Positions 34,069 through 51,126 of a stretch of 64,000 bases of DNA are shown piece after piece (within the stretch, counting starts at the first letter, position 1; each line of letters opens with the position of its first letter). The position numbers and the translations under genes are program-made. This DNA is from an uncultured Bacillales bacterium (lineage in GTDB: Bacteria > Bacillota_I > Bacilli_A > RF39 > UBA660), in the NCBI GenBank assembly GCA_947571655.1, contig CANOYR010000008.1, positions 1,386 through 65,385 on the forward strand, given 5' to 3'. The notes beneath the pieces were generated by a model, which searched no databases, was not told the DNA's origin, and saw only the letters and a list, made by a program, of their open reading frames with translations.

Positions 34069-34084
34069 AAAGGAGAAATCATCT

Positions 34085-34609
34085 ATGAAAGTAAAACGAG
34101 TTTTAACAGGTTATTTAGAAGAAAATTGTTATCTATTAATTAAAGATAATTGTTGTTTAGTGATTGATCCAGGCGATGATTATTTAAAAATCAAAAAAGA
34201 AATTGGTGATTTAAAAGTTTTGGCAGTTTTAATTACTCATTATCATTTTGATCATATAGGTGCGTTAAAAGAACTTTTGGGTGAGTTTTCTGTTCCTGTT
34301 TATGATTTTAATTCTTCTGATGAAAAGAAATACCAAATTGGTCCCTTTTGTTTTAAAGTAGTATTCAATCCAGGACACTCTAAGGATTCTATTCGTTTCG
34401 TATTTGGAAAAGAAGAAATGATGTTTGTTGGAGATTTTATTTTTCAGGGGTCAATTGGGCGCTGTGATTTGGAAGGTGGCAGTTTTGAACAAATGCAGAA
34501 AAGTATTCAATCGTTGTTAAAGGAAACAGTAAATTATTTAATTTATCCAGGACATGGTCCAAAAACAACTTTAGAATATGAAAAGAAGTATAATGCTTAT
34601 TTTTCTTAA
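34085..34609 (+). CDS. MBL-fold hydrolase (glyoxalase II-like)
   Basis: LITHYHFDHIGA motif plus downstream D/H ligands. Confidence 0.6.
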   Translation: MKVKRVLTGYLEENCYLLIKDNCCLVIDPGDDYLKIKKEIGDLKVLAVLITHYHFDHIGALKELLGEFSVPVYDFNSSDEKKYQIGPFCFKVVFNPGHSKDSIRFVFGKEEMMFVGDFIFQGSIGRCDLEGGSFEQMQKSIQSLLKETVNYLIYPGHGPKTTLEYEKKYNAYFS

Positions 34610-34633
34610 TTATCCATTTTTTACCAAAAATGT

Positions 34634-34662
34634 TTGCACTTTCTTTTAAGTTGTGATATAAT
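34634..34662 (+). promoter_or_regulatory. Promoter TTGCAC-17-TGnTATAAT for first cohesin-like gene
   Basis: Hexamers 34634-39 and 34657-62 with extended -10 TG. Confidence 0.5.
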
Positions 34663-34688
34663 ATGGCACAACTTAGGGGGAAATTGAT

Positions 34689-35483
34689 ATGAAAAACAAA
34701 TTTATATTTCTTTTTATTGTATTTTTTATGATGAGTGTTCCAGTAGAGGCAATGGGGACTGCTAAAATTGAGTTTTTATCAGAAGATGAGATAAAAGTAG
34801 GCGATATTTTTACTGTAGATATGCAGTTATCAGAGATTCAGGATACTTATCGTGGTGTTGTTAGTTTGGAAGGAAGATTATCTTTTAATTCTGAGATGCT
34901 TGAACTACTTTCTTTTGAAGGGATAAAAGAGCCTTATCGTTTTCAAATGAATCAAAAAACAAGAAAATTAGCAGCTTTAGATTTTACTTTACAAAATGGA
35001 ATTACAGATACACTTACAGTTTATCAGTTTACTTTTCAAGCAAAGAAAATTGGGACTACTGTAATTACATTAAATGAAGCAAAAACGACAGATTGTAAGG
35101 AATATATTGATACTACAGTCATTGAAAAGAAAATACAAATTCAAGAAGAAAAAGAAATTCCAAAAGAAAGTCAAGAAATATTAGAATCATGTGAAAAGGA
35201 AGTAACTCCAAAAATAGAAGAACAAGTATTTGAGGATACTATTATAAAAGAAGATTCTGTAGAAAAAGAAATAAAACATCAGGAAGAAAAAGAAGATGAT
35301 TCAAAGGAAATTGTAGAAAATGATCAAGTAGAAAAAAATTTAGAAGAAAATTTGATTCGTTCAAAACCATTAAAAGAAGTGAAAGTATCAGAAACAAAAA
35401 AGAAAAAGGAATCTTTTTTCTTAGAAAAAGTTCAGAAATTGTTGAGTGATATATTTTCAGGAATTCAAGATTTATTAAAATAG
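34689..35483 (+). CDS. Secreted cohesin-like domain protein with E/K-rich tail
   Basis: Signal peptide. About 120-aa module (KIEFLSEDEIKVGDIFTVDMQL...FTFQAKKIGTTVITL) paralogous to the N-terminal modules of 4 other cluster proteins and matching the cohesin beta-sandwich pattern. Confidence 0.5.
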   Translation: MKNKFIFLFIVFFMMSVPVEAMGTAKIEFLSEDEIKVGDIFTVDMQLSEIQDTYRGVVSLEGRLSFNSEMLELLSFEGIKEPYRFQMNQKTRKLAALDFTLQNGITDTLTVYQFTFQAKKIGTTVITLNEAKTTDCKEYIDTTVIEKKIQIQEEKEIPKESQEILESCEKEVTPKIEEQVFEDTIIKEDSVEKEIKHQEEKEDDSKEIVENDQVEKNLEENLIRSKPLKEVKVSETKKKKESFFLEKVQKLLSDIFSGIQDLLK

Positions 35484-35574
35484 AGGAACTAGAATCCTCT
35501 ATTTCTTTTTATAAAAATCTTGTGTTCTGTTCTTACTATATGTTATAATACGATTATAAGGTAGGTAGTGTAGT

Positions 35575-36027
35575 ATGAAAATAAAAAATATGATATTTAA
35601 TAAAAAAGTAATTATTATTGGTGGAATTCTTTTTGTATTAATACTTGCGATTATAGGAATTATTATATGGAATCCTTTTACTTCTAATCAAGAATCGCAA
35701 AAAGAAGCATTGACTAAGAGATTAGAAACAATGGGGTCAGAGTTCTATGAGAATTTTTATTATAAACAAATCGATATTTTAGGAGATGAGAAGGCTTCTT
35801 TCTTAAGAGGATATCAAACTATTGGAATTAAGGTTGATTTGGATAATTTATCTCGTTATAATGGTCAGAATAGTGAAGAAGTTTTAAAAGAATTTGTAAA
35901 TAAGAAAACAAAAGAAGTTTGTGATAAAAATCGAACTCAAGTAATTATTTATCCAGAAGATCCATTTGATCAGAATTCTTATAAAATTGAAGTTCAGCTT
36001 GAATGTGGTTTAGAAGAAGAAAAATAA
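35575..36027 (+). CDS. Hypothetical membrane-anchored protein
   Basis: Single N-terminal TM helix. Confidence 0.3.
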   Translation: MKIKNMIFNKKVIIIGGILFVLILAIIGIIIWNPFTSNQESQKEALTKRLETMGSEFYENFYYKQIDILGDEKASFLRGYQTIGIKVDLDNLSRYNGQNSEEVLKEFVNKKTKEVCDKNRTQVIIYPEDPFDQNSYKIEVQLECGLEEEK

Positions 36028-36112
36028 TGAATTAAAAAGTAATTTCGTTTGAGAGATTACTTTTTTGTTTGATTCTTTATTTTTTTGTTAAAAAAGAGGA
36101 AAAGAATTTGAA

Positions 36113-36205
36113 TGTTTTATAATTTGACATTCTTTGACAGTTATTTACATCTATATTGTCAAAAAACAGTAGTAAATTGTCAAAGCCTTTGGTATACTCT
36201 AAATA
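36113..36205 (+). promoter_or_regulatory. Promoter region with repeated TTGACA/TGTCAA elements and extended -10 TGgTATACT
   Basis: TTGACA x2 direct, TTGACAG-N16-TGTCAA inverted, second TTGTCAA, then tgGTATACT ~30 nt before the RBS GGAG of the giant gene. Confidence 0.4.
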
Positions 36206-36234
36206 GAATAGGAAAAGGATATGGAGTTGTTAGT

Positions 36235-39200
36235 ATGAAGAAAAATATTAAATGTATTTTAGAAACTATCATTTTAATGATTATAATAGGTTTTCCAAAT
36301 CAAACGTTTGCGGCAGCAGAACACAAATTTAGTTTAAGTGGTGTTGTTTGTCCAATGGATAACTATGCTAGTGAAACAGGTAATGATAAATACTATGCTT
36401 GTATGGATGATTACTTAAATGGAAATCTAAGCGAAACTGTCGTAGCTGGGGATAAGGTAGAACCTGGAACCACTGTTATGGTAATCTTAAATTATAGTCC
36501 AGGGGATTCTCATAATGTGGTTGCTTTAAACGCAGCACTTCGTTATGACTCTACAAAATGGACACCAACGGTTCAAGAAGGATCAGATTTTTATGATGAA
36601 AGTCAATTTCCAAAGCCAGGAAGAAAGGTAACTTGGCAAACTTCTTTTAATGTTCGAGGACCTGGTGATATCAGTTATTATGTAGAGGATACTGCTAATA
36701 GCATGACACCACTTACTCAAGATACTGAATTAGGTTATGTATTTTTAAAATTAAATGATGATGTAGGTACTAATGAAGATATTACCTTAACTTTAGGTGA
36801 TGAACCAGGTGATACTGACCTTTCAGATGAAGATGGAAATCAGGTGAGACCTTACAAATTATCAAATATGAATTTAACTACTCCAGAAGCAGAAGAGTCT
36901 ACAGATGCTAGTTTAAAAACATTGACTGTAATGAATGGAACAACAACTTATTCTTTAGATCCAGCTTTTACACCAGGTGATGAAACCGTTACTTCGTATC
37001 AAGCAGTTGTACCTAATGATATTACTTCTGTTGATTTAGCAGCTACAGCAAATGATGCGGGTGCTACGGTTTTACCTGCAGGTATTGGAACAAAATCAGT
37101 GAGTGTTGGTGATAATTCTTTTGATATTGTTGTAACTGCTGCTTCAGGAGCAACAAAAACTTATACAGTTCATGTTTATCGTTTATCAAATGATGCAACG
37201 CTATCAAGCTTAACATTAACGAACCAAGTATCTATTGGAGCTTTACAAGCTGGAAAATATACTTATACAGCAACTGTTCCTTATGCTACAGCAAGTACAA
37301 CCGTTTCTGCTACAGCTACTAATACAAACGCAACTGTAAAAAGTGGTACGGGTCTTTGGAATTTAACGAATACTGGTGCAACAAAAAATACCAAAATAGT
37401 AAAAGTAGAAGCAGAAAACTGTAAAACAGAGTACAGAAGTGTACCTGGAAATAGTTGTACTGATCAGGACTATACAATTGAAATTACTCGTGAAGAAGCA
37501 TCTAGTAATAATTATTTGAGTAGTTTAACTACTGATGGTACTAGTGTACCAGGATTTGTAAAAACAACAAATACTTATACGCTTCCTGATGTTTCAGCAT
37601 CAAAAACTTCGATGACGATTGCAGCTGTTGTAGAGGATACAGGGAAAGCTAAAATTGTTAGTGGTATAGGTACTGTAAATTTATCAGTAGGAGATAATAG
37701 TTTTGACGTCGTTGTAGAAGCAGAAAATGGAACAAGGAATACTTATACAATTAAAGTAAAAAAATTATCAAATAATATCAAACTTGCTAGTTTAAATGTA
37801 ACAAGTAATCCACAAGGGAATTTATCACCTACTTTCTCAAGTACAAATACGAGTGGTTATACTTATACCTATGATGTTACAGCACCACAAATTACTGTGG
37901 CAGCAACAGTAGAGGATACAGGGAAAGCAAAAGTTGCTATTGTAGATGTTTCTACCAATGCAAGTGCAACAGGTACTCCTACATTGAATTCAGCAACCGA
38001 AGTTTTTTCAAATACCGTAACTAAAGTATCTGTCATTGTAACTGCAGAAGATGGAAGTGTTCAAGCTTATCCAATTACATTATCTCGTAGTAAATCTACA
38101 AATACTTATCTTTCAAGCTTATCAATCGATGAAACTTCTTTAGATCAAACTTTTGTAAAAACAACACGTACTTATACAGCAACTGTTGCTTCGAATGTTA
38201 CAAGTGTTACAGTAAATGCAGTAGCAGAAGATGCACCACGTGCAACAATTAAGTCAATTACAGGAAATAGCAATTTACAATTTGGAAATAATCCGATTGT
38301 CATCACTGTAAAAGCAGAAAGTGGTTTAGAAGAAACATATACAATTAATTTAACTCGTGAAAAATCAAATGTTGCAACTTTAGATGATTTAACAATCGAT
38401 GGTACAACAGTTTCTGGATTTAATAAAAATACATTGACTTATACAATTCCAGGAAGTGTTGCTTACGATAAAAAATCTGTTACGATTGGAACTATCAAAA
38501 CAGATCCAAATTCGACGGTAACCGGAGATGGATCCGTAAACTTAACAACTGGACAAAATCAAATTGTTATTAAAGTTACTGCTCAAAATGGGGTTGACTT
38601 TAATGAATATAAAATTAATATTGAACGTGATAAAAACAGTGATAATACAGTTCATGGATTAACAGTAGCAGGAAAAACTCCTACATTAAATAGTGAAGGA
38701 AAATATGAGGTAACTCTTCCAAATGGACAAACTACTTTAGATCCAAGTGATGTAGTTGTTACTGTAGGGGATGGAGCAACTGTTACAAAAGGAAATGCAA
38801 TTAACCTATCAACGGAAAATGTTAATACCTATCAGTTTACTGTTACGAGTGAGTCTGGGGTAACTGAAACTTATACTGTATTAGTTACAAGAGAACCATC
38901 TACTTCAACAACACTTTCTAAAGTAACTTTAAACATTGGAACAGATAGTAGCAGAAGTTGTGTAATGAGTGGTGATACTTGTAAAATTACAGTACCAGCA
39001 GATACAACAGATTTTACTTTAACTACTGAAATTCCATCCACTTCAACTATTTCACCAGTAGATGGAACTACACATACTATGGGAACTACAGAAAGTACTA
39101 AAAATATAACTTTGACAGTAACTGCAGAAGATGGAACAACAACAAAGGATTATACATTAGTCGTAGAAAGAGAAAAATCAACCGTAAATACTTTAGCTAC

Positions 39201-41280
39201 TCTTACTGTTAGCGAAGGAACATTAGATCCAGTATTTGCTCCAGGAACAAATTCTTATACAGTCAATGTAGCTGGTAATGTTGATACAATTAATGTAGCA
39301 GCAACTTTAACAGATCCACGTGCAGAAATTGTAAGTGGTACAGGAGATCATTCATTAAATGTAGGTACTAATACAATTACAGTTCGTGTAAAAAGTGAGT
39401 CTGGAGCGTTCAATGATTATAAAATTGAAGTAACAAGAGCACAGAAAACAGATAATGATTTATTAGATTTAACGGTAGATGGAACAACAGTTCCAGGATT
39501 TAATAAAGATGTCTTAGAATATACACTAACGAATGTACCTTATTCAACAACAAGTATCTTAATCGGAGTAACAAAGTCTGATAGTGATGCGCGTGTTACT
39601 GGTACTGGTAGAAAGGCATTAGTAACGGGACTAAATACATTCGAAGTAGTAGTAACTGCACAAGATGGAACACCAAAAACGTATACAATTAAGGTAACAA
39701 GAGAGAAAAACAATGAAGCAAGATTAAGTTCATTGGTAATTAATGGACAAACTTTAGATCCAGCGTTTGACAGAGATACATTTGACTATGAAATTACAGT
39801 AGCAGCGGAAAAAGATACGCTATCACCAAACGAAATCACAGCAATTCCTGTAGATTCAAATGCAACTGTAGTAAAAGATGCTGCACTTAGTTTATCTACA
39901 ACAATCGATAACTACTATGAAATTCATGTAACCGCAGAAGATGGAACAGAAAAAACTTATACAATTAAAGTAAATCGTCCAAAATCAAGTGATGCTACTT
40001 TGAGGGAAGTAAAGGTAACAGGTGGGTCTCTTTCACCAACATTCAGTGCAGGAGAAACGTCTTATACAATTACACTTCCAACAGGAAGCACAAACTTCGA
40101 GATTGAAGGTATTGTGAATGTAGGTACTACACAAGTATTTGGAAATGGATCTTATACATTAGCAGATGGTACTGTAACACTTACAACAAGGGCAGAAGAT
40201 GGAACAGAAAAAACTTATACATTTACTATTACAGAAGCTTTAAGTAACGATGCAACACTTGCTAGTTTAAGTGTAACAGATCACAATTTGGATAAAACCT
40301 TCGTACCAACGACTTTAGGATATGATATTGGAAATGTTACTTATGGTACAACACAATTAGTGGTAAATGCCGTAGCAAAAAATATTAATTCTACCATTCA
40401 ATATTTCTTAGATGGAGTAGAACAATCAAGTAATATTATTAATATTCCTAATACTTTAGGACAAAAACAGATTACTGTAACAGTAACAGCACCAGATGGA
40501 CAAACGAAAGAATCTTATACAATTGACTATACTTTAGTTCAATCAAGTAATGCTTATCTAAAGATGATTACACCATCAACAGGAACTTTAAATCCAACCT
40601 TTGAAAAAACAACAAAAGATTATGAAGTAGCAGTTAGTGGAGAAACTACAAGTATTGATTTTACAATTGAAGCAGATGATGTGAATTCTACAGTTGCAGT
40701 AAATGGAGATACTTTCCAAGGAACGAAAACAGTTACTATGTCTAGTTTAACTGTAGGAGAAAATCCATTAACGATCTTAGTAACGGCACAAGATGGAACA
40801 ACAAAAACGTATAAAGTAGTAGTGAAGAGAGAACTTACAATTTCTGAGGTGATTACTTCTGATATTTATGGACATACTATTTTAGATGATTTTATTGAAA
40901 CTGTTAAACTAGATACAATCGGAAGTGAAATGAAAGATCAATTAGATAATCCAAATGAATATTTAGAAATCTGGACGGCTGATGAATCTAGTCAGGTAGG
41001 GGATACAGATACTTTAGCAACAGGTATGATTATTAAATTGATGATTAATGGAGAAGAAAAAGATAGGAAATACGTTGTTGTTAAAGGGGATACCTCAGGA
41101 GATGGATTTATTGATTTATTTGATGCAGTAAAGATTTTAAATCATGTTTTAGAAGAAGAGGGTGAGATGTTAACTGGTGCTTATTTAGAGGCTGGTTATA
41201 TCAATGATGATAGTATCGTAGATTTATTTGATGCAGTTAAAATTCTAAATCATGTATTGCAAGAAGAACTCATTCATTAG
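36235..41280 (+). CDS. Giant secreted protein: N-terminal domain, 14 cadherin-like beta-sandwich repeats, C-terminal dockerin (type A)
   Basis: Signal peptide MKKNIKCILETIILMIIIGFPNQTFA. About 90-aa repeats beginning (A/S)xL(S/K)xLTV...YT(I/V)xVxR. C-terminus GDTSGDGFIDLFDAVKILNHVL...GYINDDSIVDLFDAVKILNHVL = duplicated Ca-binding dockerin segments. Confidence 0.6.
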   Translation: MKKNIKCILETIILMIIIGFPNQTFAAAEHKFSLSGVVCPMDNYASETGNDKYYACMDDYLNGNLSETVVAGDKVEPGTTVMVILNYSPGDSHNVVALNAALRYDSTKWTPTVQEGSDFYDESQFPKPGRKVTWQTSFNVRGPGDISYYVEDTANSMTPLTQDTELGYVFLKLNDDVGTNEDITLTLGDEPGDTDLSDEDGNQVRPYKLSNMNLTTPEAEESTDASLKTLTVMNGTTTYSLDPAFTPGDETVTSYQAVVPNDITSVDLAATANDAGATVLPAGIGTKSVSVGDNSFDIVVTAASGATKTYTVHVYRLSNDATLSSLTLTNQVSIGALQAGKYTYTATVPYATASTTVSATATNTNATVKSGTGLWNLTNTGATKNTKIVKVEAENCKTEYRSVPGNSCTDQDYTIEITREEASSNNYLSSLTTDGTSVPGFVKTTNTYTLPDVSASKTSMTIAAVVEDTGKAKIVSGIGTVNLSVGDNSFDVVVEAENGTRNTYTIKVKKLSNNIKLASLNVTSNPQGNLSPTFSSTNTSGYTYTYDVTAPQITVAATVEDTGKAKVAIVDVSTNASATGTPTLNSATEVFSNTVTKVSVIVTAEDGSVQAYPITLSRSKSTNTYLSSLSIDETSLDQTFVKTTRTYTATVASNVTSVTVNAVAEDAPRATIKSITGNSNLQFGNNPIVITVKAESGLEETYTINLTREKSNVATLDDLTIDGTTVSGFNKNTLTYTIPGSVAYDKKSVTIGTIKTDPNSTVTGDGSVNLTTGQNQIVIKVTAQNGVDFNEYKINIERDKNSDNTVHGLTVAGKTPTLNSEGKYEVTLPNGQTTLDPSDVVVTVGDGATVTKGNAINLSTENVNTYQFTVTSESGVTETYTVLVTREPSTSTTLSKVTLNIGTDSSRSCVMSGDTCKITVPADTTDFTLTTEIPSTSTISPVDGTTHTMGTTESTKNITLTVTAEDGTTTKDYTLVVEREKSTVNTLATLTVSEGTLDPVFAPGTNSYTVNVAGNVDTINVAATLTDPRAEIVSGTGDHSLNVGTNTITVRVKSESGAFNDYKIEVTRAQKTDNDLLDLTVDGTTVPGFNKDVLEYTLTNVPYSTTSILIGVTKSDSDARVTGTGRKALVTGLNTFEVVVTAQDGTPKTYTIKVTREKNNEARLSSLVINGQTLDPAFDRDTFDYEITVAAEKDTLSPNEITAIPVDSNATVVKDAALSLSTTIDNYYEIHVTAEDGTEKTYTIKVNRPKSSDATLREVKVTGGSLSPTFSAGETSYTITLPTGSTNFEIEGIVNVGTTQVFGNGSYTLADGTVTLTTRAEDGTEKTYTFTITEALSNDATLASLSVTDHNLDKTFVPTTLGYDIGNVTYGTTQLVVNAVAKNINSTIQYFLDGVEQSSNIINIPNTLGQKQITVTVTAPDGQTKESYTIDYTLVQSSNAYLKMITPSTGTLNPTFEKTTKDYEVAVSGETTSIDFTIEADDVNSTVAVNGDTFQGTKTVTMSSLTVGENPLTILVTAQDGTTKTYKVVVKRELTISEVITSDIYGHTILDDFIETVKLDTIGSEMKDQLDNPNEYLEIWTADESSQVGDTDTLATGMIIKLMINGEEKDRKYVVVKGDTSGDGFIDLFDAVKILNHVLEEEGEMLTGAYLEAGYINDDSIVDLFDAVKILNHVLQEELIH

Positions 41281-41294
41281 AAGTAGGAGGAAGT

Positions 41295-43490
41295 ATGAAA
41301 ATAAAAAAAAGTTTAAACTTATTAATCATTTTGGCATTAATATGCTCCATATTTGGTTTTTCTACTCAAGTAAAGGCAGAAACTGGTAGTGGAAGATTTG
41401 GTTTTGGAGGAAATTCAACAGTTAGTCTTGGTAGTAATATTACAATTACATTGTATGTAACAGATATTAAAGATGTTATCAGTGGAATTACTAGTATTGA
41501 GGCAAATTTAAGTTTTGATAGTCAATATTTGGAATATGTGTCTGGAACAGGAATGACTGATCCATATAAGGCAAGAATTAATACATCAGCAAATTATAAA
41601 ATTGCAGCTTTAGATACCGATTTGATTGGTTTTAACACTCAGACTACAATTATGACATTTGTATTTAAGGCATTAAAGGAAGGAGAAACAGAAGTTACAG
41701 TAACAGGAACAAAATTAACAGATAAGAAAAATCAATTGACTTCTACTGTAACTCCTAAGAAAATTACGATTGGTCCAAAGAGTACACCGACTCCAACGCC
41801 AACGCCAACGCAAAAGCCGACACCTACACCGACTCCAACGCCAACACCCTCAACACCGCCTTCAAAGAGCAGTGATGCAACATTAAAAACTTTAGTTGCC
41901 AGTGGATATACATTAAGTCCAAGTTTCTCAGCAGATACAACGAATTACACGGTAAAAGTACCAAGTGATGCAACAAATGTAATATTACAGGGAACAGCAA
42001 ATCATGGAAAAGCAACAATTGCAGGACTTGGAACAATTAATTTGACAGGAGATAGTACAACAGCAACGGTTACAGTAACGGCAGAAGATGGAAGTAAAAA
42101 AACATATACAATTCTTATTGAAAAAGAAAATAGGCAAGAAGTTCCAAAAGATGGGAATGCAAACTTAAAGAGTTTAAGTGTCAGTGGGTATACATTAAGT
42201 CCTACGTTTAAAAGTAATGTTAATACTTATTCTATGAGTGTTAAGAATAATGTTACAGGATTGGATGTTAGTGCAATTCCAGCAAGTGATAAAGCAAGTG
42301 TAGTAGTTACTGGAAATAAAGGATGGAAAGTGGGAGTCAATGTAGTTACTATAAAAGTAACGGCAGAAGATGGTAGTCAAAATACATATATTATCAATGT
42401 TACTAGAGCATCTTCTACTCCAAAAGAAACAGCTGCAGCAAAATCTACAGATAATTATTTGAAGTCTTTAATTATTAATTCTTCTCATGAAATTACGCCA
42501 GCTTTTGATAAGAATAAATCAAATTATACGGTTACAGTTCCTTATGAAGTTGATAAGTTAGATTTGACGTATCTTACTAATCATTCTAATGCGAAAGTAA
42601 AAGTCAATGGAAATAGTAATTTTAAAGTTGGAGAAGTTAATACTGTTGAAATTGAAGTAACAGCGGAAGATGGAACGGTTCGTATTTATACTTTAAATGT
42701 TACGCGTAGTACTCAAACTGGTAAAACAGATTTAAAAGAATTAACAGTAACGAATGGAGTTTTAAGTCCAAATTTTGATCCAAATGTTTTAGAATATAAT
42801 GTAAAAGTTGATGGAAAAATAGATCAGTTAGATATTCGTGCGATTGCTAAAGATCCTGATTCTAAAGTGGAAATTATTGGTAATAGTAATCTTAAAGAGG
42901 GAAAAAATACAGTTTTAGTAAAGGTTACAGATAAAAATGGATTTACGAAGTATTATACAATCAATGTAGAAAAGGAAACAAAGAAGAATACCATTTTAGG
43001 TCTTTCTCCACTTCAGTTTGGAATTATTACAGGTATTATTAGTTTATTATTATTGTTACTTCTCTTCTTATTATTTAAGAAAAGAAAGAAAGATGATGAA
43101 ACTTCAGTAGCATCAATTGCTCCTCAACCTCCAGTAACTCCGATTATTGAAGTAAAACCAGAATTTAATTTTGGTTCTAAGAACAGTTCTGATGATGATG
43201 TTGTCCATGGAAATTTCAATCAAAATAGTACAATTACAGGAACAAATTCTTTACCAGAACCTAAAGCAATAGAAGCAATTGAGGCAAGTTATGAGGAATT
43301 AGAAGAGAATGTTCCTTATGATCCATATGATGAAACAGTAACAAAAAGAGAAATTATTGATGCTATTAATGAGGCAACGAGAACAAAAGATCCAGCAAAA
43401 TTAAAGATGTTATTAGAACAAGATGCATTAAATCAAAAGAAAAAAGAATTAAAAAGAAAAGAAGCAGAATTAAGAAATAGAAAATATTAA
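41295..43490 (+). CDS. Membrane-anchored scaffoldin-like protein: cohesin-like module, Thr/Pro linker, 4 cadherin-like repeats, TM helix, cytoplasmic tail
   Basis: GGAGGAAG RBS. Cohesin-like N-module, (TP)n linker, repeats, hydrophobic IITGIISLLLLLLLFLLF followed by a KKRKK stop-transfer. Confidence 0.55.
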   Translation: MKIKKSLNLLIILALICSIFGFSTQVKAETGSGRFGFGGNSTVSLGSNITITLYVTDIKDVISGITSIEANLSFDSQYLEYVSGTGMTDPYKARINTSANYKIAALDTDLIGFNTQTTIMTFVFKALKEGETEVTVTGTKLTDKKNQLTSTVTPKKITIGPKSTPTPTPTPTQKPTPTPTPTPTPSTPPSKSSDATLKTLVASGYTLSPSFSADTTNYTVKVPSDATNVILQGTANHGKATIAGLGTINLTGDSTTATVTVTAEDGSKKTYTILIEKENRQEVPKDGNANLKSLSVSGYTLSPTFKSNVNTYSMSVKNNVTGLDVSAIPASDKASVVVTGNKGWKVGVNVVTIKVTAEDGSQNTYIINVTRASSTPKETAAAKSTDNYLKSLIINSSHEITPAFDKNKSNYTVTVPYEVDKLDLTYLTNHSNAKVKVNGNSNFKVGEVNTVEIEVTAEDGTVRIYTLNVTRSTQTGKTDLKELTVTNGVLSPNFDPNVLEYNVKVDGKIDQLDIRAIAKDPDSKVEIIGNSNLKEGKNTVLVKVTDKNGFTKYYTINVEKETKKNTILGLSPLQFGIITGIISLLLLLLLFLLFKKRKKDDETSVASIAPQPPVTPIIEVKPEFNFGSKNSSDDDVVHGNFNQNSTITGTNSLPEPKAIEAIEASYEELEENVPYDPYDETVTKREIIDAINEATRTKDPAKLKMLLEQDALNQKKKELKRKEAELRNRKY

Positions 43491-43507
43491 CATTGGAGGT
43501 ATTCATT

Positions 43508-44401
43508 ATGAAGAAAAACTGTAGGAAGAAATTGTATTTTATAATCCTATTTTTTTTCTTCTTTTTTTATCCTCTATTGGTCGGTGCTGAGGGCAAGGCA
43601 ACTACTGGAGTAAGAATCGAAGGAAAACCTTATTTAGATGAAACTTTTGATGTTGTTTTATATATTAATGATGTTTCTGGTACTACAAATGATGAAGGGC
43701 TTGCTGCTTTTGGAGGACATTTTTATTATGATACAGATAAATTAGAACTTGTTGAGTATCAATCGTTAGGTCCTTTTAATGTTAAAGTAGTAGGGAATAA
43801 TGTCGGTGGTTTTGGGTTGGATTATATTACTGGATATCAGGATGTTTTAAAATTCACGTTTCGTGCATTAAAACTGGGAGATGCAATCATTGACTATCCT
43901 GATAATGATCAACCAGATTCTAAAGCAAATCCAGTGAATATTGCTGGATGTCAGAAAATTGTTTCTATTACGAATCGTCCTATTCCTCTAACAATTGATC
44001 AAACGGATCTTTTTATACTTACCGGAAAGAGTAAAAAACTAACCGCTAGTTATCATTTAGAAGGAGAGGTAACAGGAGTTTGGACTTCTTTAAATCCTTT
44101 CATTGCTTCTGTTGATCAATTTGGTAATGTTACTGGAAATTCTCCTGGAGTTACAACGATTATTTATCAGACTAGTAATGGTTATCAGGTAGAGTGTGAA
44201 GTAACAATTTCCGATTATTTAAAGGGGGATGTTAATCAAGATGGTAAGATAACTATAAAAGATGTAATGGAAGTTATTTATTTTTATATCAAGAAGAAAG
44301 TTCCAACAGAGAGTTCTTATATTATTGGAGATATGAATGAGGATGGAAAATTGAATTTAAAGGATGCGAATTTGATTCTTGCTATTTATATGAAAAAATA
44401 G
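43508..44401 (+). CDS. Adaptor-like protein: cohesin-like module, BIG2-like domain, dockerin (type B)
   Basis: Signal peptide. C-terminal GDVNQDGKITIKDVMEVIYFY...GDMNEDGKLNLKDANLILAIY = canonical two-loop dockerin. Confidence 0.55.
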   Translation: MKKNCRKKLYFIILFFFFFFYPLLVGAEGKATTGVRIEGKPYLDETFDVVLYINDVSGTTNDEGLAAFGGHFYYDTDKLELVEYQSLGPFNVKVVGNNVGGFGLDYITGYQDVLKFTFRALKLGDAIIDYPDNDQPDSKANPVNIAGCQKIVSITNRPIPLTIDQTDLFILTGKSKKLTASYHLEGEVTGVWTSLNPFIASVDQFGNVTGNSPGVTTIIYQTSNGYQVECEVTISDYLKGDVNQDGKITIKDVMEVIYFYIKKKVPTESSYIIGDMNEDGKLNLKDANLILAIYMKK

Positions 44402-44806
44402 GAAAATGATTCAGTATTAAAGTGGTGTAAAGTAAAATGTTCACTGCTTTTTTTGTTTTTTATGAGAAAATTTATACCTTTTAGAGTTTGTATGTTTTTT
44501 ACTAGGTTTTGGGTGATTATTATCAATCTCTAAAACTTTAGTTTTTTCTTTGAAAAATAAAATATTAGTAGTAACTATCAATTTATAAATTATACAGGTC
44601 TTAGAGTTAAAGAATCATTTTGAAAGATGTAATCCAATTCTTGGTATTTATCTAGAAAAATAACGATAAAATTTTCTTTTTTGTTAAATTTAATTAGAAA
44701 TCAAAATCTAGACTTTCTAAGGTATAAGTGCTATAATGAAAATAGGACACGATAGGTGATAAGTAGGAAAGGAGAAGAAACAGTAAAAGGTGTTTCAAAT
44801 AATAAA

Positions 44807-45586
44807 ATGAAAAAGAGGTTGAAGAAGAATCAAAAAATAATTATAAAAATCTTTCTTTTATTTAGTGTTTTTTTGATAAATCCATGGATAGAAGTAAGTG
44901 CAGTAGATGATACTACTGGGAAAAGAAATATTGAGAATGCAACTGTAGAAGGGCTTTATAATTATCCATTTACAGGCTCTTATATCAAACCAGATACTAT
45001 TGTTGTAAAATATGAAGGGGAAGTATTAGTAGAAAAAACAGATTATACGATTAGTTTTTCTGGATTTTATGGACCAGGTACTATTACGGTTACTATTAAA
45101 GGAAAAAATAATTATGAAGGAACTTTAATTCAGGAATATGAAATTATTAGAAATACAGATTACATTCTAAAAATGAATAAACCAGTATTAAGTCTTTCTT
45201 TACAGGGCATGCAAACTTTAAGTTTATATACGACACCAAGTGTTTATATCAATCCTAGTAAAATTCAGTGGCAATCTTCTAATCCAATGATAGTTTCTGT
45301 TAATGAAAATGGAAACTTAACACCAATAGGGCTTGGGGATGCTACGATTACAGCAACATTTAATGGACAGAGTGTAACAAGTCAAGTAACTGTAGTAGAG
45401 TATTTAAAAGGTGATATTAATAAAGATGGGAAGGTAAATTTAAAGGATGTAATGGAAGTTATCTATTTTTATACTAAGAAGAAAACTCCAACGGAAGAGA
45501 GTTATTTATTAGGAGATATGAATGGGGATGGAAAATTGAATTTGAAAGATGCAACACCAATCCTAGAAATTTATTTAAAGAAATAA
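44807..45586 (+). CDS. Secreted Ig-like domain protein with dockerin (type B)
   Basis: Signal peptide. C-terminal GDINKDGKVNLKDVMEVIYFY...GDMNGDGKLNLKDATPILEIY, near-identical in pattern to the previous gene's dockerin. Confidence 0.55.
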   Translation: MKKRLKKNQKIIIKIFLLFSVFLINPWIEVSAVDDTTGKRNIENATVEGLYNYPFTGSYIKPDTIVVKYEGEVLVEKTDYTISFSGFYGPGTITVTIKGKNNYEGTLIQEYEIIRNTDYILKMNKPVLSLSLQGMQTLSLYTTPSVYINPSKIQWQSSNPMIVSVNENGNLTPIGLGDATITATFNGQSVTSQVTVVEYLKGDINKDGKVNLKDVMEVIYFYTKKKTPTEESYLLGDMNGDGKLNLKDATPILEIYLKK

Positions 45587-45589
45587 ATT

Positions 45590-46309
45590 ATGAAAATTAA
45601 GAAAAGATATAAACTTTACTTCATCAATATTATGATTTTAATCATAGTGGGAGTTTTTTGTTTTTCTATTTATCGTTATCTTCAGCTTTTCTATTTTAAA
45701 GAGGCAAGTAAAAAAGTAAATGAAAAACTTATTGAGGAGGTCATTAAGGAAACTGATTCTTCTAAGGAAGGAAAGGAAACGTCTGAATTTGTAATTGATT
45801 TTCAGAAATTAAAAGAAATTAATAAAGATGTGGTTGGTTGGATATATATTCCTAAAACAAAGATTAATTATCCGATTGTTCAAAGAGAAGATAATTGGTA
45901 TTATCTCAATCATGATATTTATCAAAAGTATAATATATTAGGATCTATTTATATGAATGCATATAATCAAAATGATTTTTCAGATGAAAATACTATTTTA
46001 TTTGGTCATAACAATCATCAAGATCATTTGATGTTTACAGACTTAAAAGAAGTCTATGATGGATTACTTGGTGAGGAACTTTTTATTTATATCTATACAG
46101 AAACAGAAACTTACATTTATCAGGTTTATTCTGTTTATCTTGCTGATCCATCTGATGAGGCACCACTAAATATAAAGACGAATTTTTTTGAGAAAACAGA
46201 GAGAAAGTTCTTATATGAAGCAAGTAATTTTAAAAAGACACTGACCTTATCTACTTGTTATAAAGATAGTAGTCAAAGAATTATTGTTCATGCGTCAAGA
46301 AGTGTCTAG
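45590..46309 (+). CDS. srtB: Sortase, class B-like
   Basis: N-terminal TM anchor, conserved His (ILFGHN), catalytic TLSTC motif, downstream Arg. Start overlaps the preceding stop. Confidence 0.65.
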   Translation: MKIKKRYKLYFINIMILIIVGVFCFSIYRYLQLFYFKEASKKVNEKLIEEVIKETDSSKEGKETSEFVIDFQKLKEINKDVVGWIYIPKTKINYPIVQREDNWYYLNHDIYQKYNILGSIYMNAYNQNDFSDENTILFGHNNHQDHLMFTDLKEVYDGLLGEELFIYIYTETETYIYQVYSVYLADPSDEAPLNIKTNFFEKTERKFLYEASNFKKTLTLSTCYKDSSQRIIVHASRSV

Positions 46310-46395
46310 AATAAAAAATAAACTATTTTATTTATGTCAAAGTAATGCTATAATAATGTTAATAAATAGAAAATATATCTATGGGAGGAAAAAGT

Positions 46396-49300
46396 ATGAA
46401 ACTAAAGAAGAAATATAAGGCAATATTGTTATCTTTTGTCTTAGTTGCACTTTTAACAGTTACTAATATGATTGTTGGGGCTTCTAATGTAGCTAAAATG
46501 TCAATAGAACCATTAGCGGGAGATATTGAACCAGGAGATACGTTTACTTTAAATGTAAAGCTTCAAGATTCTGAATATTTTAATGCTTTAGGATATCGAA
46601 TGATTTTCGATGATACAGCATTTGAATTTCAGAGTGCTACGTTCTTAGAGGGAAAAAATACATATAGTATTAGGGAAGTAAATAATGCAGGAAATGAGGT
46701 GCTTTTTGCTTCTATAAATACTAGTCAAACCAATTACGAAGATTGTAATGGGATTATAGCGACTGTAACTTTTAAAGCAAAGAGTACAGCTGTAGGAGAA
46801 TATGATTTTAATCTTGTAATGGATCGTGATACTGGAGATGATGAGTTCTTTAAAACGGATGTCGATATGAACGATATAGATTTAGAATTAGAAACAGGTT
46901 CTTTGAAGGTCAAAGTAAAAGTTGATGCTACAGATATTACAGTATCACCAACTGCATTAGATTTGATTAAAGGAAATACTTCTAAGATTACAATCGCTTC
47001 TGTGCCTAGTAAGGTAACGACATTAAGAAATGCTAGTATTACAGTAAATCCTAGTGGAGTTGTAACTGTTGATGATGATGGAAATGTAGAGGCAATTGGG
47101 AACGGAACAGCAACAATTAGTGTAACTGCTTATGGAATTACCAAAACAATTCCAGTGAGTGTTACTAATCCAATTACTGGAATTTCTTTAGATAAAACTT
47201 CTTTAGAATTAGGAAAAGGACAGACTTATCAATTAAAGGCAACGATTAATCCTAGTGATACATCAGAATCAAAAACAATTATTTGGAGTTCTACCAATGA
47301 TGATATTGCTACTGTTAGTAGTGATGGAACTGTAACAGCAGTTGGAAATGTTGGTGATACAAAAGCAACGATTCGTGCTACTTCTTCTAACCCAGCTTAC
47401 TATGCAGAGTGTGTAGTAGATATTGTAATTCCAATTACTTCTGTCAATATGGATCAAACTCCAATTACTTTAAATAAGGGTGAAGAAAGACAATTGTCTT
47501 TTACTTATGAACCTAGTAATACAACACAAGATAGAACAATTACTTGGGAGTCATCAGATCCAACTGTTGCTACTGTGAATAATGGAAAAGTAACAGCAGT
47601 AAAAGGTGGTACTACTACAATTACAGCTTCTATGTTAAATAAAACATGGACAAAATCAGTAGTTATTACAGTAGAAGTTGGATTAAATGATGTTATTTTA
47701 ACTCCAACAAGTGTCGAATTATTACCAGGACAAGAACAAACGATTCAGCCATCATTTGATCCGTTTGATGCTACTCATAAAGATATTACATGGGCTTCTT
47801 TAGATAGTGGGATTGCAAGTGTTGATGGGAATGGAAAAATTACAGCAGTTGCACCAGGAACTACAACGATTACTGCTACTTATCAAACATTGACAGGTGA
47901 AAAAACGAAAAATGTACAAGTAAAAGTGTTAATTCCAATTACTGGTGTAACAATTAAACCAAATAGTGCGATTACAATTAATAAAGGCGATTCAACTACT
48001 TTATCAGTAGAAGTTACTCCAGCGAATGCAGAAGAGGATAAAACTGTAACTTGGAGTAGTAATCAACCTAATATTGCATCTGTTGATTCATCTGGCGTTG
48101 TTACTGGGAATGCAAATGGTACTGCTGTAATTACTGGAACACTAAAAAATGGAAAAACAGTAACTGCAAATATTACTGTTCATGTACCAATTAGTAATAT
48201 CACTTTAAATAAAAGCGTATTAAATTTAAATAAAGGGGATACTTATCATGAATTAGTTGCAACTATTCAACCTAGTGATTCAACAATCAAAGCAGTTAAT
48301 TGGACAACTTCAAATGATAAAGTTGCTACTGTCAATGCTACAACTGGTGAGATTACTGCAATCGCAGATGGAACTGCTATTATTACAGCAACTGCAGAAG
48401 GACAAACTGCGACTGTTACTGTATATGTTACAACAGCAGTAACTAGTATTTCTATTAATCAAGGAACAACAAAAGCAATGTTAAAAGGGGATACAGGTAC
48501 TTTAACAGCGACTGTTCTTCCAAACGATGCAACAGATAAGACTGTAACTTGGTCATCTAATCAACCAGAAATTGTAAGTGTAGATTCTAATGGAAATATT
48601 GCTGCAAAAGCTGGTGGAACTGCAGTAATTACTGCAAAATCAGGAAGTAAAATAGCAAGTATTACAATTACGGTTCGTGTTCCAATTACAACATTTGAAC
48701 TTGCGCTTGAAGATCAAAATCCAACAATTTTGAGAGGTGCAAAGAATGCTAAAGTTTTAAAAACAGTAATTGGACCTGAGGATGCAACCGATGATAGAAC
48801 AATCGAATGGACTTCTTCTGATTCTACCATAGCTACTGTTGATAGTACTGGGAAGGTAACTGGAATTAAAGAAGGTACTGCAACGATTACAGGTAGGTTA
48901 ACTTCAACAGGTGCTACTGTTACTTCTAATGTTACAATTGAAGTAATTGAACTTACAGGAATTAAAGTAGAATTGGAAAGTGATGATATTTTAAAGGGAA
49001 GAAATTATCAAGTGAATGTAATTCCAATCCCAGAAGATTCAACAGAGCTTGAAAATATCGAATATACAAGTAGTGATGAAGATGTCTTTACCGTATCTAG
49101 TGATGGTGTCATTACTGGAATTAAAGAAGGTACTGCAACATTAACAGTAACAGTTTTAGGACCTGGTGTTACAAGAGCTGCTGCGATTACTGAGCAAGTT
49201 GAAGTTCATGTTCGTGAAGTTCAATTAGAGGGAATTCATATTATTCCAATTACAAAAGAATTAACGATTGGGGAAACAGCTCAGATTATGATTGATGTTT

Positions 49301-49617
49301 CTCCAGAAGATACAACAGATGGATTTGAATTAACCTATAAATCAAGTGATGAAAATGTAGCAATTGTAGACGAAAATGGTGTGGTAACAGCAATTGGAGA
49401 GGGGACAACTAAAATCACAGTAATTGCTACTACTGAGAATGGTGATAAATTTGAATCTGTAAGTGAGATTACTGTTGTAAATGGAAAAATTAAAGATGTT
49501 GTAAGTCCTAAGACCTCTATAGAATCTTCTACAAAATACTTGATTATTTCTGCAATTTCGATTGGAATGGTAGCAGGACTTATATTCACCAAAAAAAAGT
49601 TAAAAAAAGGAAAATAA
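46396..49617 (+). CDS. Cell-wall-anchored protein: cohesin-like module, 11 BIG2 repeats, SPKTS sorting signal
   Basis: GGGAGG RBS. BIG2 repeats (...LxxGxxxQLxATxxP...WxSSNxxxATV...G). C-terminus VVSPKTSIESS plus hydrophobic segment plus KKKLKKGK. Confidence 0.6.
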   Translation: MKLKKKYKAILLSFVLVALLTVTNMIVGASNVAKMSIEPLAGDIEPGDTFTLNVKLQDSEYFNALGYRMIFDDTAFEFQSATFLEGKNTYSIREVNNAGNEVLFASINTSQTNYEDCNGIIATVTFKAKSTAVGEYDFNLVMDRDTGDDEFFKTDVDMNDIDLELETGSLKVKVKVDATDITVSPTALDLIKGNTSKITIASVPSKVTTLRNASITVNPSGVVTVDDDGNVEAIGNGTATISVTAYGITKTIPVSVTNPITGISLDKTSLELGKGQTYQLKATINPSDTSESKTIIWSSTNDDIATVSSDGTVTAVGNVGDTKATIRATSSNPAYYAECVVDIVIPITSVNMDQTPITLNKGEERQLSFTYEPSNTTQDRTITWESSDPTVATVNNGKVTAVKGGTTTITASMLNKTWTKSVVITVEVGLNDVILTPTSVELLPGQEQTIQPSFDPFDATHKDITWASLDSGIASVDGNGKITAVAPGTTTITATYQTLTGEKTKNVQVKVLIPITGVTIKPNSAITINKGDSTTLSVEVTPANAEEDKTVTWSSNQPNIASVDSSGVVTGNANGTAVITGTLKNGKTVTANITVHVPISNITLNKSVLNLNKGDTYHELVATIQPSDSTIKAVNWTTSNDKVATVNATTGEITAIADGTAIITATAEGQTATVTVYVTTAVTSISINQGTTKAMLKGDTGTLTATVLPNDATDKTVTWSSNQPEIVSVDSNGNIAAKAGGTAVITAKSGSKIASITITVRVPITTFELALEDQNPTILRGAKNAKVLKTVIGPEDATDDRTIEWTSSDSTIATVDSTGKVTGIKEGTATITGRLTSTGATVTSNVTIEVIELTGIKVELESDDILKGRNYQVNVIPIPEDSTELENIEYTSSDEDVFTVSSDGVITGIKEGTATLTVTVLGPGVTRAAAITEQVEVHVREVQLEGIHIIPITKELTIGETAQIMIDVSPEDTTDGFELTYKSSDENVAIVDENGVVTAIGEGTTKITVIATTENGDKFESVSEITVVNGKIKDVVSPKTSIESSTKYLIISAISIGMVAGLIFTKKKLKKGK

Positions 49618-49618
49618 A

Positions 49619-50413
49619 ATGAAAAAAATATTAGGAATTTTCTTCTTATTACAAATTTTATGGATTCCTAATGGATATGCTAATGAGCTACCTACGATTT
49701 CTGTAGGTAGTTTTGATGTCTATGTAGGAGAAAAGATAGTAGTGCCTATTACGATTAAAAATAATCCAGGATGCAGTTATCTTGGAATTAAAGTTAGTTA
49801 TGATGAAAATGGTTTGGAATATATTGATTCTAAATTGAAAGGTTTAGAAAATGCTGATATGAAGAATATTCAAAAAGATGATAATGTGATTACACTTTAT
49901 GCGATTTCTTTTCAAGAAGATAAGAGTATGGATGATAATGATGTAATTGCAGAGATTACTTTTATGGTTAAGGAAAAGGCAACGACATCTACTTTAAGGG
50001 TAGATGTTACGGATTTTGGTGGAAATGATTTAGTAGATTATGAGTTTAGGGAGAATGATGGAATCATTCGAATTGTTGATAAGAGATTAAGTAATACTAA
50101 AGAGGATTTGACACAATATCTTTCTCCTTCTACAGATGCTGTAATTACTTGGAAATCAATGGATGAGGATATCGCAGAGGTTGATGAGAGAGGACAAGTG
50201 TTTTTTTCTAATCAAGGAACTACTACTATAACAGGAATTGATTCTGATGGAAATATTGTTGTCGAAAAGGAATATACTGTTGTCGATGAGGTAAAGCAAC
50301 AACAATCAGAAGAAAAGCAAAAAAATCAAGAGTTTTTTATTTTCATTTCTTTTGGAGTTTTTCTTATTCTTTGTTGTATTCTTATTTTTATAAGAAAAAA
50401 GATTAAAAAGTAA
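49619..50413 (+). CDS. Membrane-anchored cohesin-like module protein
   Basis: Start overlaps the upstream stop (taaaATG). Signal peptide, cohesin-like module, one Ig-like domain, C-terminal TM plus RKKIKK. Confidence 0.45.
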   Translation: MKKILGIFFLLQILWIPNGYANELPTISVGSFDVYVGEKIVVPITIKNNPGCSYLGIKVSYDENGLEYIDSKLKGLENADMKNIQKDDNVITLYAISFQEDKSMDDNDVIAEITFMVKEKATTSTLRVDVTDFGGNDLVDYEFRENDGIIRIVDKRLSNTKEDLTQYLSPSTDAVITWKSMDEDIAEVDERGQVFFSNQGTTTITGIDSDGNIVVEKEYTVVDEVKQQQSEEKQKNQEFFIFISFGVFLILCCILIFIRKKIKK

Positions 50414-50548
50414 ATGATGAGTAGTTTCGTTGTTTGCTTTTTCTATTGAGAACTTCTTTGTTAAGAAAAAGTGCGCTATTTCCATTTAAAATTGATAGAA
50501 TGGATTTTGAAAATAAGATAAAATGAATTACAGAAAGGAGAGAGAAAA

Positions 50549-51118
50549 ATGGGAATTGGAGAAAAGATTCTATCATTAAGAAAGGGTGCACATATTACTC
50601 AAGAAGAATTAGCTGAGAAATTAAATGTAACTAGACAAACGATTTCAAAGTGGGAGTTAGAAGAAACGGCACCAGATATTAAACAGGCAAAGGAGTTATC
50701 TAGGATTTTTCATGTTAGTTTGGATGAACTTGTAGGAAATGATGTAAAAGATTTGCTTGTGGAGAGGGTAAGTAATACAGAAAAACTTGCAGGTATGATT
50801 ATTAAAATCATTAAAATTGGAGGAGCAATTATTTTTGGTCTATTTTTCATTGAATTAATTGTTTTATTTTTCTTTAGTATTGGAGTGCTGGTTCAAAAAA
50901 ATACTTCTCATGCAAAAGTTTCTAATATTCGATGTACTATAGATGGAAAAGAATATTCTTATCAAATTGAGCACAAAGGAAATCATATTATTCATATGGC
51001 TGGAAATTCTTATTTTGAGGAGCATATCAATTTTTCTAAATATGAAAATCCAGAAGATTTATTTGGAGCTATCAATCATCATTTTATAGAAAACGGAGGA
51101 AGTTGTAGTAGGAATTAG
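50549..51118 (+). CDS. Membrane-bound XRE-family HTH transcriptional regulator
   Basis: LRKGAHITQEELAEKLNVTRQTISKWE HTH, then a TM helix and a ~80-aa extracytoplasmic domain. Confidence 0.6.
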   Translation: MGIGEKILSLRKGAHITQEELAEKLNVTRQTISKWELEETAPDIKQAKELSRIFHVSLDELVGNDVKDLLVERVSNTEKLAGMIIKIIKIGGAIIFGLFFIELIVLFFFSIGVLVQKNTSHAKVSNIRCTIDGKEYSYQIEHKGNHIIHMAGNSYFEEHINFSKYENPEDLFGAINHHFIENGGSCSRN

Positions 51119-51126
51119 TAAATTAC

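Follow-up and report, generated by a model that had tools for sequence, protein, structure and literature searches.

A candidate enzyme-free cohesin-dockerin surface-assembly cluster with two dockerin types in an uncultured Bacillales bacterium

A 64,000-nucleotide stretch of DNA from an uncultured Bacillales bacterium (assembly GCA_947571655.1, contig CANOYR010000008.1, positions 1,386 to 65,385; hereafter the window) contains a compact cluster of about nine genes (34689-50413, ~16 kb) that together encode six cohesin-like modules, three dockerins, one sortase, one sorting signal and two cohesin proteins anchored by transmembrane helices. The dockerins are of two types, DocA (one copy) and DocB (two copies). 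We interpret this locus, probably though not firmly, as an enzyme-free surface-assembly cluster in which DocA would be received by the group-I cohesins of two proteins, p41295 and p43508, and DocB by the group-II cohesin of a third, p46381. Two separate specificities are supported by differences at the dockerin recognition positions, by the division of the cohesins into two sequence groups, and by module-specific co-variation among related loci. The features on which this argument depends are as follows.

34689-35483, + strand: p34689, with a signal peptide, a group-I cohesin (about 34749-35138) and a Glu/Lys-rich tail
36235-41280, + strand: a giant secreted protein of 1,681 amino acids (aa), in which a signal peptide and a probable cohesin are followed by 12 or more cadherin-like beta-sandwich repeats, then by an X module and DocA
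36316-36909, + strand: the giant's N-terminal probable cohesin (Pfam Cohesin 23.2 bits, just under the cut-off of 24.1)
40828-41079, + strand: the X module, a small alpha/beta domain that an AlphaFold2 (AF2) model packs against DocA
41080-41277, + strand: DocA, a symmetric dockerin with two near-identical helices, at the C-terminus of the giant
41295-43490, + strand: p41295, a membrane-anchored scaffoldin with a group-I cohesin (41379-41789), a Pro/Thr linker (41781-41861) and four cadherin-like repeats (four Pfam matches)
43011-43076 and 43077-43487, + strand: the transmembrane helix and the 137-aa cytoplasmic tail of p41295
43508-44401, + strand: p43508, with a signal peptide and a group-I cohesin (43586-43987), which a Big_2 domain (43988-44215) separates from DocB
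44219-44398, + strand: DocB of p43508 (Pfam Dockerin_1 32.7 bits, cut-off 22.9)
44807-45586, + strand (open reading frame, ORF, opens at 44756): p44756, a cargo protein that lacks a cohesin, with a signal peptide, an N-domain, a Big_2 domain (45212-45397; 30.5 bits) and DocB
45404-45583, + strand: DocB of p44756 (Pfam Dockerin_1 35.8 bits, cut-off 22.9)
45590-46309, + strand: the sortase, with a TLSTC catalytic motif (46244-46258), a Pfam Sortase match of 64 bits and conserved adjacency
46396-49617, + strand: p46381, with a group-II cohesin (46483-46935), ten Big_2 domains (ten Pfam matches) and, after the motif SPKTS (49504-49518), a hydrophobic stretch (49537-49587) that is followed by a Lys-rich tail
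49619-50413, + strand: p49619, in which a group-II cohesin (49682-50098) precedes a Big_2 domain, with a transmembrane helix (50333-50392) at the C-terminus

Dockerin and cohesin types in the cluster

DocA is built from two segments, DTSGDGFIDLFDAVKILNHVLE and YINDDSIVDLFDAVKILNHVLQ, which are identical at positions 9-21 when numbered, as dockerin segments are throughout, from the first calcium-loop residue. The original prediction, made from the letters of this DNA, had described such an internally duplicated helix and had set the giant's dockerin apart from DocB; both descriptions hold, and all of the dockerin peptides that it quoted are present as translated. The calcium loop of segment 1 is canonical. 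Since the DNA of the two segments is identical at only 35 of 42 positions, the symmetry is not the trace of a fresh duplication. The helices evolve in concert, with 11.9 of 14 positions identical within a genome as compared to 8.8 of 14 for the same segment between genomes. This is what one would expect if both DocA faces must stay equivalent, as in dockerins with a dual binding mode, a concept treated in PMC5429695.

That DocA is a dockerin at all is indicated by several observations. Its homologues P0040, P0042, P0043 and P0047 have canonical loops and precomputed matches to PF00404, and the homologues grade into canonical dockerins. Profile-profile comparison of DocA and DocB with hhalign gave a probability of 97.7% (E 2e-12). 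An AF2 model of the giant's last 152 residues, covering the X module and DocA, was confident (predicted local distance difference test, pLDDT, 91.8; predicted template modelling score, pTM, 0.85), and DocA has the two-segment, three-helix fold of dockerins, in which segments of ~22 residues consist of an EF-hand-like calcium loop and then a helix. When the Protein Data Bank (PDB) was searched with this model using Foldseek, the best 27 matches were all dockerins, with template modelling (TM) scores of 0.75-0.87 and root-mean-square deviations (rmsd) of 1.4-2.6 A. Therefore, given its homologues, the profile match, the confident model and the fold matches, we regard DocA as a diverged but genuine dockerin.

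The X module next to it had no Pfam match and, compared with the known structures of an X module joined to a dockerin (X-Doc) 4wkz and 4iu2, no convincing fold match (rmsd 8-14 A). A profile of the giant's last repeat plus X-Doc reached E<=1e-30 with 121 representatives in a set of 1.84 billion clusters; among the best 150 matches listed, the matched part stood mostly at the extreme C-terminus of proteins of 1,000-3,500 aa. The number of representatives and this C-terminal position suggest that the X-Doc cassette is common but unannotated.

Both copies of DocB match the C. thermocellum CelS dockerin in the PDB and have canonical calcium loops in both segments. The window's DocB is asymmetric, with 3-5 of 14 positions common to its two helices; a fully symmetric variant, with NIKDAMEIMYIV in both helices, is present in some relatives. 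Although the two copies had been called nearly identical, they are 75% identical (45/60). The gene starts at 43508 and 44807 that had been assumed for their carriers were borne out, ORF listings beginning earlier. Alignment at the recognition positions, proposed at the outset as a check on the two types, does separate them: DocA has Leu-Phe at 10-11 and Leu-Asn at 17-18 in both segments, and DocB has Ile/Leu-Lys at 10-11 together with Ile-Tyr (segment 1) and Leu-Ala or Leu-Glu (segment 2) at 17-18.

DocB is also found on other proteins. In related strains it occurs on LRR_5/Big_2 proteins of about 850 aa and about 1,470-1,510 aa, that is, proteins with leucine-rich repeats (LRR). These lie at L014 10276-17299, L015 4561-14402, L008 5778-12856 and L018 3447-7976 (L numbers denote related metagenomic loci) and are absent from the window's cluster, so that the cargo set varies by strain. 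Its presence on such varied proteins suggests that DocB is a portable tag for non-enzymatic cargo. The N-domain of p44756 gave a weak Sgo0707_N2 match only in Pfam and NCBIfam, and a DocB profile search of a 5.8-billion-protein set returned only short generic dockerin fragments that carried no cargo information.

The cohesins likewise form two groups. Comparison by blastp and hhalign placed those of p34689, p41295 and p43508 in group I and those of p46381 and p49619 in group II, to which the giant's N-terminal module is loosely attached (blastp). The cut-off of Pfam Cohesin (PF00963, 24.1 bits) is passed by p41295 (33.8 bits), p46381 (32.9 bits) and p49619 (44.2 bits), the last of which also matches the p46381 cohesin at blastp E 1e-7. 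The p34689 cohesin is 35% identical to that of p41295 (blastp E 2e-24; hhalign 99.9%), and its orthologues have Pfam Cohesin matches. The giant's N-terminal module is probably a cohesin as well, judging from a Cohesin match in five of its six orthologues (best E 8e-6) and from a profile search of the PDB that retrieved cohesins only (E 0.007); against the other cohesins of the cluster hhalign was weak, at most 3%. The extension before this module contains two cysteines, Cys12 and Cys29 (36349 and 36400), that are invariant in all six orthologues and may form a disulfide, which would be unusual for cohesins. The cluster therefore has six cohesin-like modules and not the five first counted, the extra one being that of p34689, which lies outside the range then considered. 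That range, 40950-45586, takes in the giant's C-terminus together with the whole of p41295, p43508 and p44756.

Particular interest attaches to p43508. A monovalent adaptor scaffoldin is a secreted protein that joins a single cohesin to a single dockerin (PMC11557425), and p43508 is, by its predicted architecture, such a protein, as had been proposed. This reading depends on the N-terminal module being a cohesin. While the Big_2 domain and the Dockerin_1 domain pass Pfam, the N-terminal module has no Pfam match. By hhalign it aligns with the p41295 cohesin family (99.4%, E 4e-21, 130 columns), and an AF2 model of p43508 made with 11 orthologues has a pLDDT of 80-95 over the N-terminal domain. 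Foldseek matched this domain to the C. perfringens structures 2w1n, 2jh2 and 2vo8 (TM 0.76-0.77), and against the solved cohesins 2jh2, 2vo8, 2vn5_A and 2xdh, C. cellulolyticum and A. fulgidus included, the model gave TM 0.56-0.77. The pairing of cohesin and dockerin in one chain is not confined to p43508, since the giant too combines a probable cohesin with a dockerin. A scan of metagenome contigs with the p43508 alignment gave one weak locus and no added taxa.

Co-variation and exchange of docking modules

The genes of the cluster are syntenic in at least eight related metagenomic loci. We computed pairwise module identities for the window and up to ten loci, correlated the resulting matrices and assessed them by Mantel permutation. 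DocA followed the p41295 cohesin (r=0.84, Mantel p=1e-4, n=8; jackknife r 0.70-0.93), with a partial r of 0.79 when the X module, cadherin repeats and cytoplasmic tail were used as controls, and it followed the p43508 cohesin as well (r=0.66, p=0.001, partial r=0.66). For the segments used as controls, partial r lay between -0.25 and 0.31. DocA was unrelated to DocB, to the giant's N-terminus and to the cohesins of p34689 (r=0.00) and p46381 (r=0.04, n=4). The two DocB copies, for their part, both followed the cohesin of p46381 (r=0.78 and 0.85; the Mantel p of 0.008 is the smallest possible for n=5). DocB did not follow the group-I cohesins (r<=0; -0.04 for p43508, n=9, and -0.30 for p41295), the giant's N-terminal module, or, with r about -0.3, the adjoining Big_2 domains and the sortase gene that lies between the p44756 DocB and the p46381 cohesin. 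Upon leaving out one locus at a time every key correlation stayed at 0.53 or above. The p43508 cohesin thus co-varies with DocA and not with the DocB in its own chain, which supports type switching by p43508, whose cohesin would accept the other dockerin type than its own.

The exchange is particularly illustrated by loci L007 and L014, for which sliding-window identities were as follows.

Giant: 85-100% up to the last ~60 residues; 35-42% over the last ~60 (DocA)
p41295: 32-58% over the first ~180 residues (signal peptide, cohesin, linker); 80-100% over the remainder
p43508: 45-60% over the cohesin; 82-92% over Big_2; 42-50% over DocB

Identity drops only at the docking modules, to 35-60% against 80-100% for the stalk domains beside them, suggesting that these are exchanged as units while the stalks are kept. 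Bulk charge gives a loose fit to the same pairs, with DocA at -12 and the p41295 cohesin at 0, and DocB at 0 and the p46381 cohesin at -17. A bolder proposal, which we consider doubtful, is that the docking modules constitute a strain-specific assembly code, in which a dockerin and both of its receiving cohesins are replaced together and the second pair independently. If such swapping were driven by selection, each strain would possess a private lock and key, and its secreted fibres would attach only to its own cells.

The co-variation could also have arisen if exposed tip modules are all hypervariable and are swapped under phage or immune pressure, with their partners lying elsewhere in the genome or being host or glycan ligands. 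We think this unlikely, but it has evidence on its side. The cluster is strongly mosaic, as in the last cadherin-like repeats of the giant: segment 40300-40830 and its orthologues have a discordant history of their own, with 86% identity between the window and L016, 88% between L007 and L014 and about 50% in other close pairs, which points to frequent recombination within the repeat array. DocA adjoins the p41295 cohesin, half of the cohesin-like modules are orphans, and non-cellulosomal cohesins and dockerins with unknown partners are widespread. Hypervariability alone, however, does not predict which alleles travel together, whereas DocA alleles match those of both group-I cohesins, in two non-adjacent genes, and DocB, which is hypervariable too, has a different history that matches the p46381 cohesin only.

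Equally, both dockerin types might bind most or all cohesins of the cluster, their differences being neutral drift and p43508 merely a chain extender. DocA and DocB are clearly homologous (by the hhalign match above and by cross-searches with hidden Markov models, E 5e-7 to 1e-5), and cross-reactive cohesin-dockerin pairs are known in cellulosomes. We nevertheless regard a single promiscuous system as improbable, because the recognition residues differ in chemistry (Leu-Phe and Leu-Asn versus Ile/Leu-Lys and Ile-Tyr), the cohesins form two groups, and DocA and DocB have separate histories of co-variation, without cross-correlation. More improbable still is a reversed or intramolecular pairing, in which DocB would bind group-I cohesins, including that of p43508 itself in self-association or polymerisation, and DocA would bind group II. 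It is true that p43508 carries both modules, but DocB does not co-vary with the p43508 or p41295 cohesins, DocA is uncorrelated with the p46381 cohesin, and AF2 did not confidently place DocB on p43508's own cohesin.

Several points weigh against our preferred reading of two specificities, in which DocA pairs with group-I cohesins and DocB with that of p46381. The co-variation draws on 5-8 taxa, simple identity matrices and about 45 exploratory comparisons, and the p43508 equivalents in L020 and L021 were assigned by position alone. DocA scores 16.0 bits (E 0.015), below the Pfam PF00404 cut-off of 22.9, even though it is matched over positions 1-56 of the 57 in the model, and in its second calcium loop Tyr and Ser stand in place of Asp1 and Gly6. 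In the AF2 model of p43508, DocB has a pLDDT of 48-61, so that its placement there is uninformative. Half of the six cohesin-like modules (those of p34689, the giant's N-terminus and p49619, the last compared across 3 orthologues) are orphans that lack an inferred partner. Neither cohesins nor dockerins beyond those of the cluster were found within the 64-kb window, which is the part of the genome covered, and further cohesins, dockerins or dockerin-bearing enzymes may be encoded elsewhere in it. Finally, no more than 14 nucleotides and a signal peptide lie between DocA and the p41295 cohesin, so that a single recombination block could explain that pair. Linkage fails for the p43508 cohesin, however, because it lies 2.2 kb away with non-co-varying sequence between, and it fails also for DocB and the p46381 cohesin. 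On balance the originally proposed two specificities and hierarchy are supported by the recognition positions, the cohesin groups and the co-variation, and the two pairs may be orthogonal, as was claimed along with them.

Anchoring, proposed assembly and genomic setting

In the proposed two-specificity assembly, p41295 and p46381 would provide the anchors. The C-terminus of p46381 reads SPKTS...YLIISAISIGMVAGLIF-TKKKLKKGK, in which the hydrophobic stretch comprises 17 residues, and the motif is kept in orthologues as SPSTS or SPNTS. By its predicted architecture p46381 is a sortase-anchored scaffoldin of the kind that anchors without S-layer homology (SLH) domains (as defined in PMC11557425). 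The best class for the sortase is B, NCBIfam TIGR03064 scoring 126.1 bits, below the equivalog cut-off of 153.75, and class C scoring 35 bits. We do not favour a sortase-polymerised pilus, since the enzyme is nearest to class B and not to the pilin-polymerising class C, and since the cluster encodes a single protein with a sorting signal.

The mechanism that we envisage would work as follows. DocA of the giant would plug into the group-I cohesins of the membrane-anchored p41295 and of the adaptor p43508, and the wall-anchored p46381 would receive DocB of p43508 and p44756 in the group-II cohesin that tips its Big_2 stalk. The giant fibre could then be displayed by two routes, either through direct docking on p41295 or from p46381 through p43508, which would switch type B to type A, to the giant. 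The stalk protein p46381 would also receive p44756 directly, as well as the LRR proteins in other strains. Judged by domain content alone, the role of such a structure might be to display long adhesin-like fibres on the cell surface, for adhesion or as a surface fibre layer. Since the giant bears a probable cohesin and DocA at opposite ends, and the adaptor a group-I cohesin and DocB, the two could also alternate head to tail in a non-covalent fibre.

In the giant, the Pfam Cadherin-like match covers 12 stretches and reaches 343 bits. The ORF of the giant opens at 36112 and so has 41 codons more than the form that starts at the likely ATG (36235), and public gene calls use this 1,722-aa long form; we prefer 36235 because in orthologues the protein starts with the signal peptide and because this ATG is preceded by a GGAG ribosome-binding site. 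The cytoplasmic tail of p41295 had no Pfam or NCBIfam family match, and its last ~90 residues are 92-100% identical among L005, L007, L008, L014, L015 and L016. The cohesin is mostly 39-58% identical in the same pairs (L005-L014 at 88% and L007-L008 at 91% being exceptions). Such a conserved tail may have an intracellular partner, or a role in signalling or secretion. In p34689 the Glu/Lys-rich, low-complexity tail (35139-35483) closes with a short, conserved amphipathic C-terminus (...KVQKLLSDIFSGIQDLLK in the window and ...ILKDFVLKLKNWF in orthologues) that could be an attachment helix; the tail has no transmembrane segment, sorting signal or usable Pfam/NCBIfam match.

One further small gene lies inside the cluster.

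35575-36027, + strand: p35575, a small single-pass membrane protein, syntenic in L005, L007, L014 and L016 at 56-62% identity

Family searches of p35575 in Pfam and NCBIfam gave no match. Some related clusters contain an inserted gene pair (L008 3504-5675, L016 11035-13206 and L018 8090-10262). One product, of 422 aa, carries an NPSTN/NPSTS sorting signal; the other is an additional, divergent sortase (280 aa) that shares 32% identity with that of the window. The NPSTN-anchored protein was considered as a receptor for DocB and rejected, its sequence having no cohesin-like region. More distant relatives, L020 (1-5268) and L021 (1-4257), have upstream proteins of more than 3,000 aa, with cadherin-like and ALK_LTK_GRD matches in that of L020. 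Both of these proteins end in dockerin sequences not seen in the window, ...DLTDQISLVNYVGK occurring twice in L020.

The window is low in G+C (26-33%) and has almost every gene on its + strand. The genes flanking the cluster are housekeeping ones (nrdD/G, folD, yebC, queH and others), which suggests that the cluster is chromosomal and not obviously a mobile element. Upstream of it, at 27712-30348, an 878-aa protein has an ATP-binding cassette ATPase and FtsX-type permease domains fused in a single chain. The only sizeable non-coding gap inside the cluster (44402-44806, ~400 bp) lies 5′ of p44756; a site within it (44709-44737) resembles a promoter and has an extended -10 element. Over 34000-51500 as a whole, the scan for promoters and terminators gave counts at or below chance. 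An Rfam scan of the window found tRNA-Cys only. The closest public contigs belong to the metagenome-assembled genomes MGBC119928, UBA7057 and ABMPRH_183_0, labelled uncultured Bacilli or Bacillales bacterium. An exact-cluster look-up across sources gave no names for seven of the cluster proteins, and literature searches found no description of the cluster or lineage.

Comparison with known cohesin-dockerin systems

To our knowledge, cohesin-dockerin assembly is understood almost wholly through the enzyme complexes of fibre-degrading Clostridia. If the assembly proposed here is correct, the cluster would be a compact, self-contained cohesin-dockerin system that, with about nine genes, single cohesins and two specificities, builds an adhesin-like surface structure free of enzymes in uncultured gut Bacilli, and it would widen the known use of such systems in gut bacteria. 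It would also offer protein engineering a small natural set of possibly orthogonal cohesin-dockerin pairs with allelic variants, and a tractable case of co-evolving interaction modules whose partners can be predicted from allele swapping.

We reject a cellulosome, as no enzyme or carbohydrate-binding module (CBM) was found in any locus within the DNA covered. Pfam and NCBIfam searches of the window's proteins found no catalytic domain in the cluster, and the related clusters L005-L008, L014-L016 and L018-L021 (~10 loci) had neither a catalytic domain nor a CBM. In its assembly logic the cluster nonetheless resembles a complex cellulosome, the nearest parallel being that of R. flavefaciens, with its sortase-anchored ScaE, monovalent adaptor ScaC and X-Doc proteins such as CttA and ScaB (PMC11557425; PMC5429695). 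Both systems have a monovalent adaptor, an X module immediately before a dockerin, and several dockerin groups within one organism; as in R. flavefaciens, the scaffoldin here would be attached by a sortase rather than by SLH domains, and the adaptor would switch specificity. They differ in that the present cluster has no glycoside hydrolases or CBMs, its cargo being cadherin-like, LRR_5 and Big_2 repeat proteins, and in that it belongs to uncultured Bacilli, not Clostridia, and would use an SPxTS motif with a class-B-like sortase. For the anchoring itself there is a precedent in C. difficile, where SrtB acts on (S/P)PxTG substrates (PMC4155245, PMC5569036). The present system resembles it in pairing a class-B-like sortase with a motif that starts with SPKT and stands ahead of a hydrophobic stretch and a basic tail. 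It differs in that the final motif residue is Ser and not Gly, the sortase scores below the class-B equivalog cut-off, and cleavage is predicted.

Other parallels concern single modules or the overall logic. The best structural match of DocA is the dockerin of the A. cellulolyticus adaptor ScaB, solved with a ScaC cohesin (PDB 4uyp; TM 0.81, rmsd 1.9 A), although identity is only about 25%. The adaptor scaffoldins of A. cellulolyticus and P. cellulosolvens share the hierarchical logic, and the symmetry of DocA fits a dual-binding mode, but those systems employ multi-cohesin scaffoldins, enzymes and SLH anchoring, whereas here each protein has a single cohesin. The closest structural neighbours of the p43508 cohesin are the non-cellulosomal cohesins of C. 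perfringens (2w1n, 2jh2, 2vo8), which likewise come from a gut-associated Firmicute and are used outside plant-fibre degradation. The C. perfringens modules join secreted glycosidase toxins to each other; those of the present cluster, which is dedicated to them and includes a sortase, would join non-catalytic repeat proteins to cell-anchored stalks. Gut cohesin-dockerin complexes with non-cellulose uses also include the amylosomes of Ruminococcus bromii and the recently proposed mucinolysomes of Limousia, as described in PMC4611034 and PMC12997984. Both are enzyme complexes, defined like cellulosomes by dockerin-tagged enzymes, in contrast to the cluster described here, with no catalytic domain in ~10 loci. 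What appears to be new is the enzyme-free, adhesin-like cargo of cadherin-like and LRR fibres, the host lineage, the predicted SPxTS anchoring by a class-B-like sortase, and the co-replacement of docking modules between close relatives.

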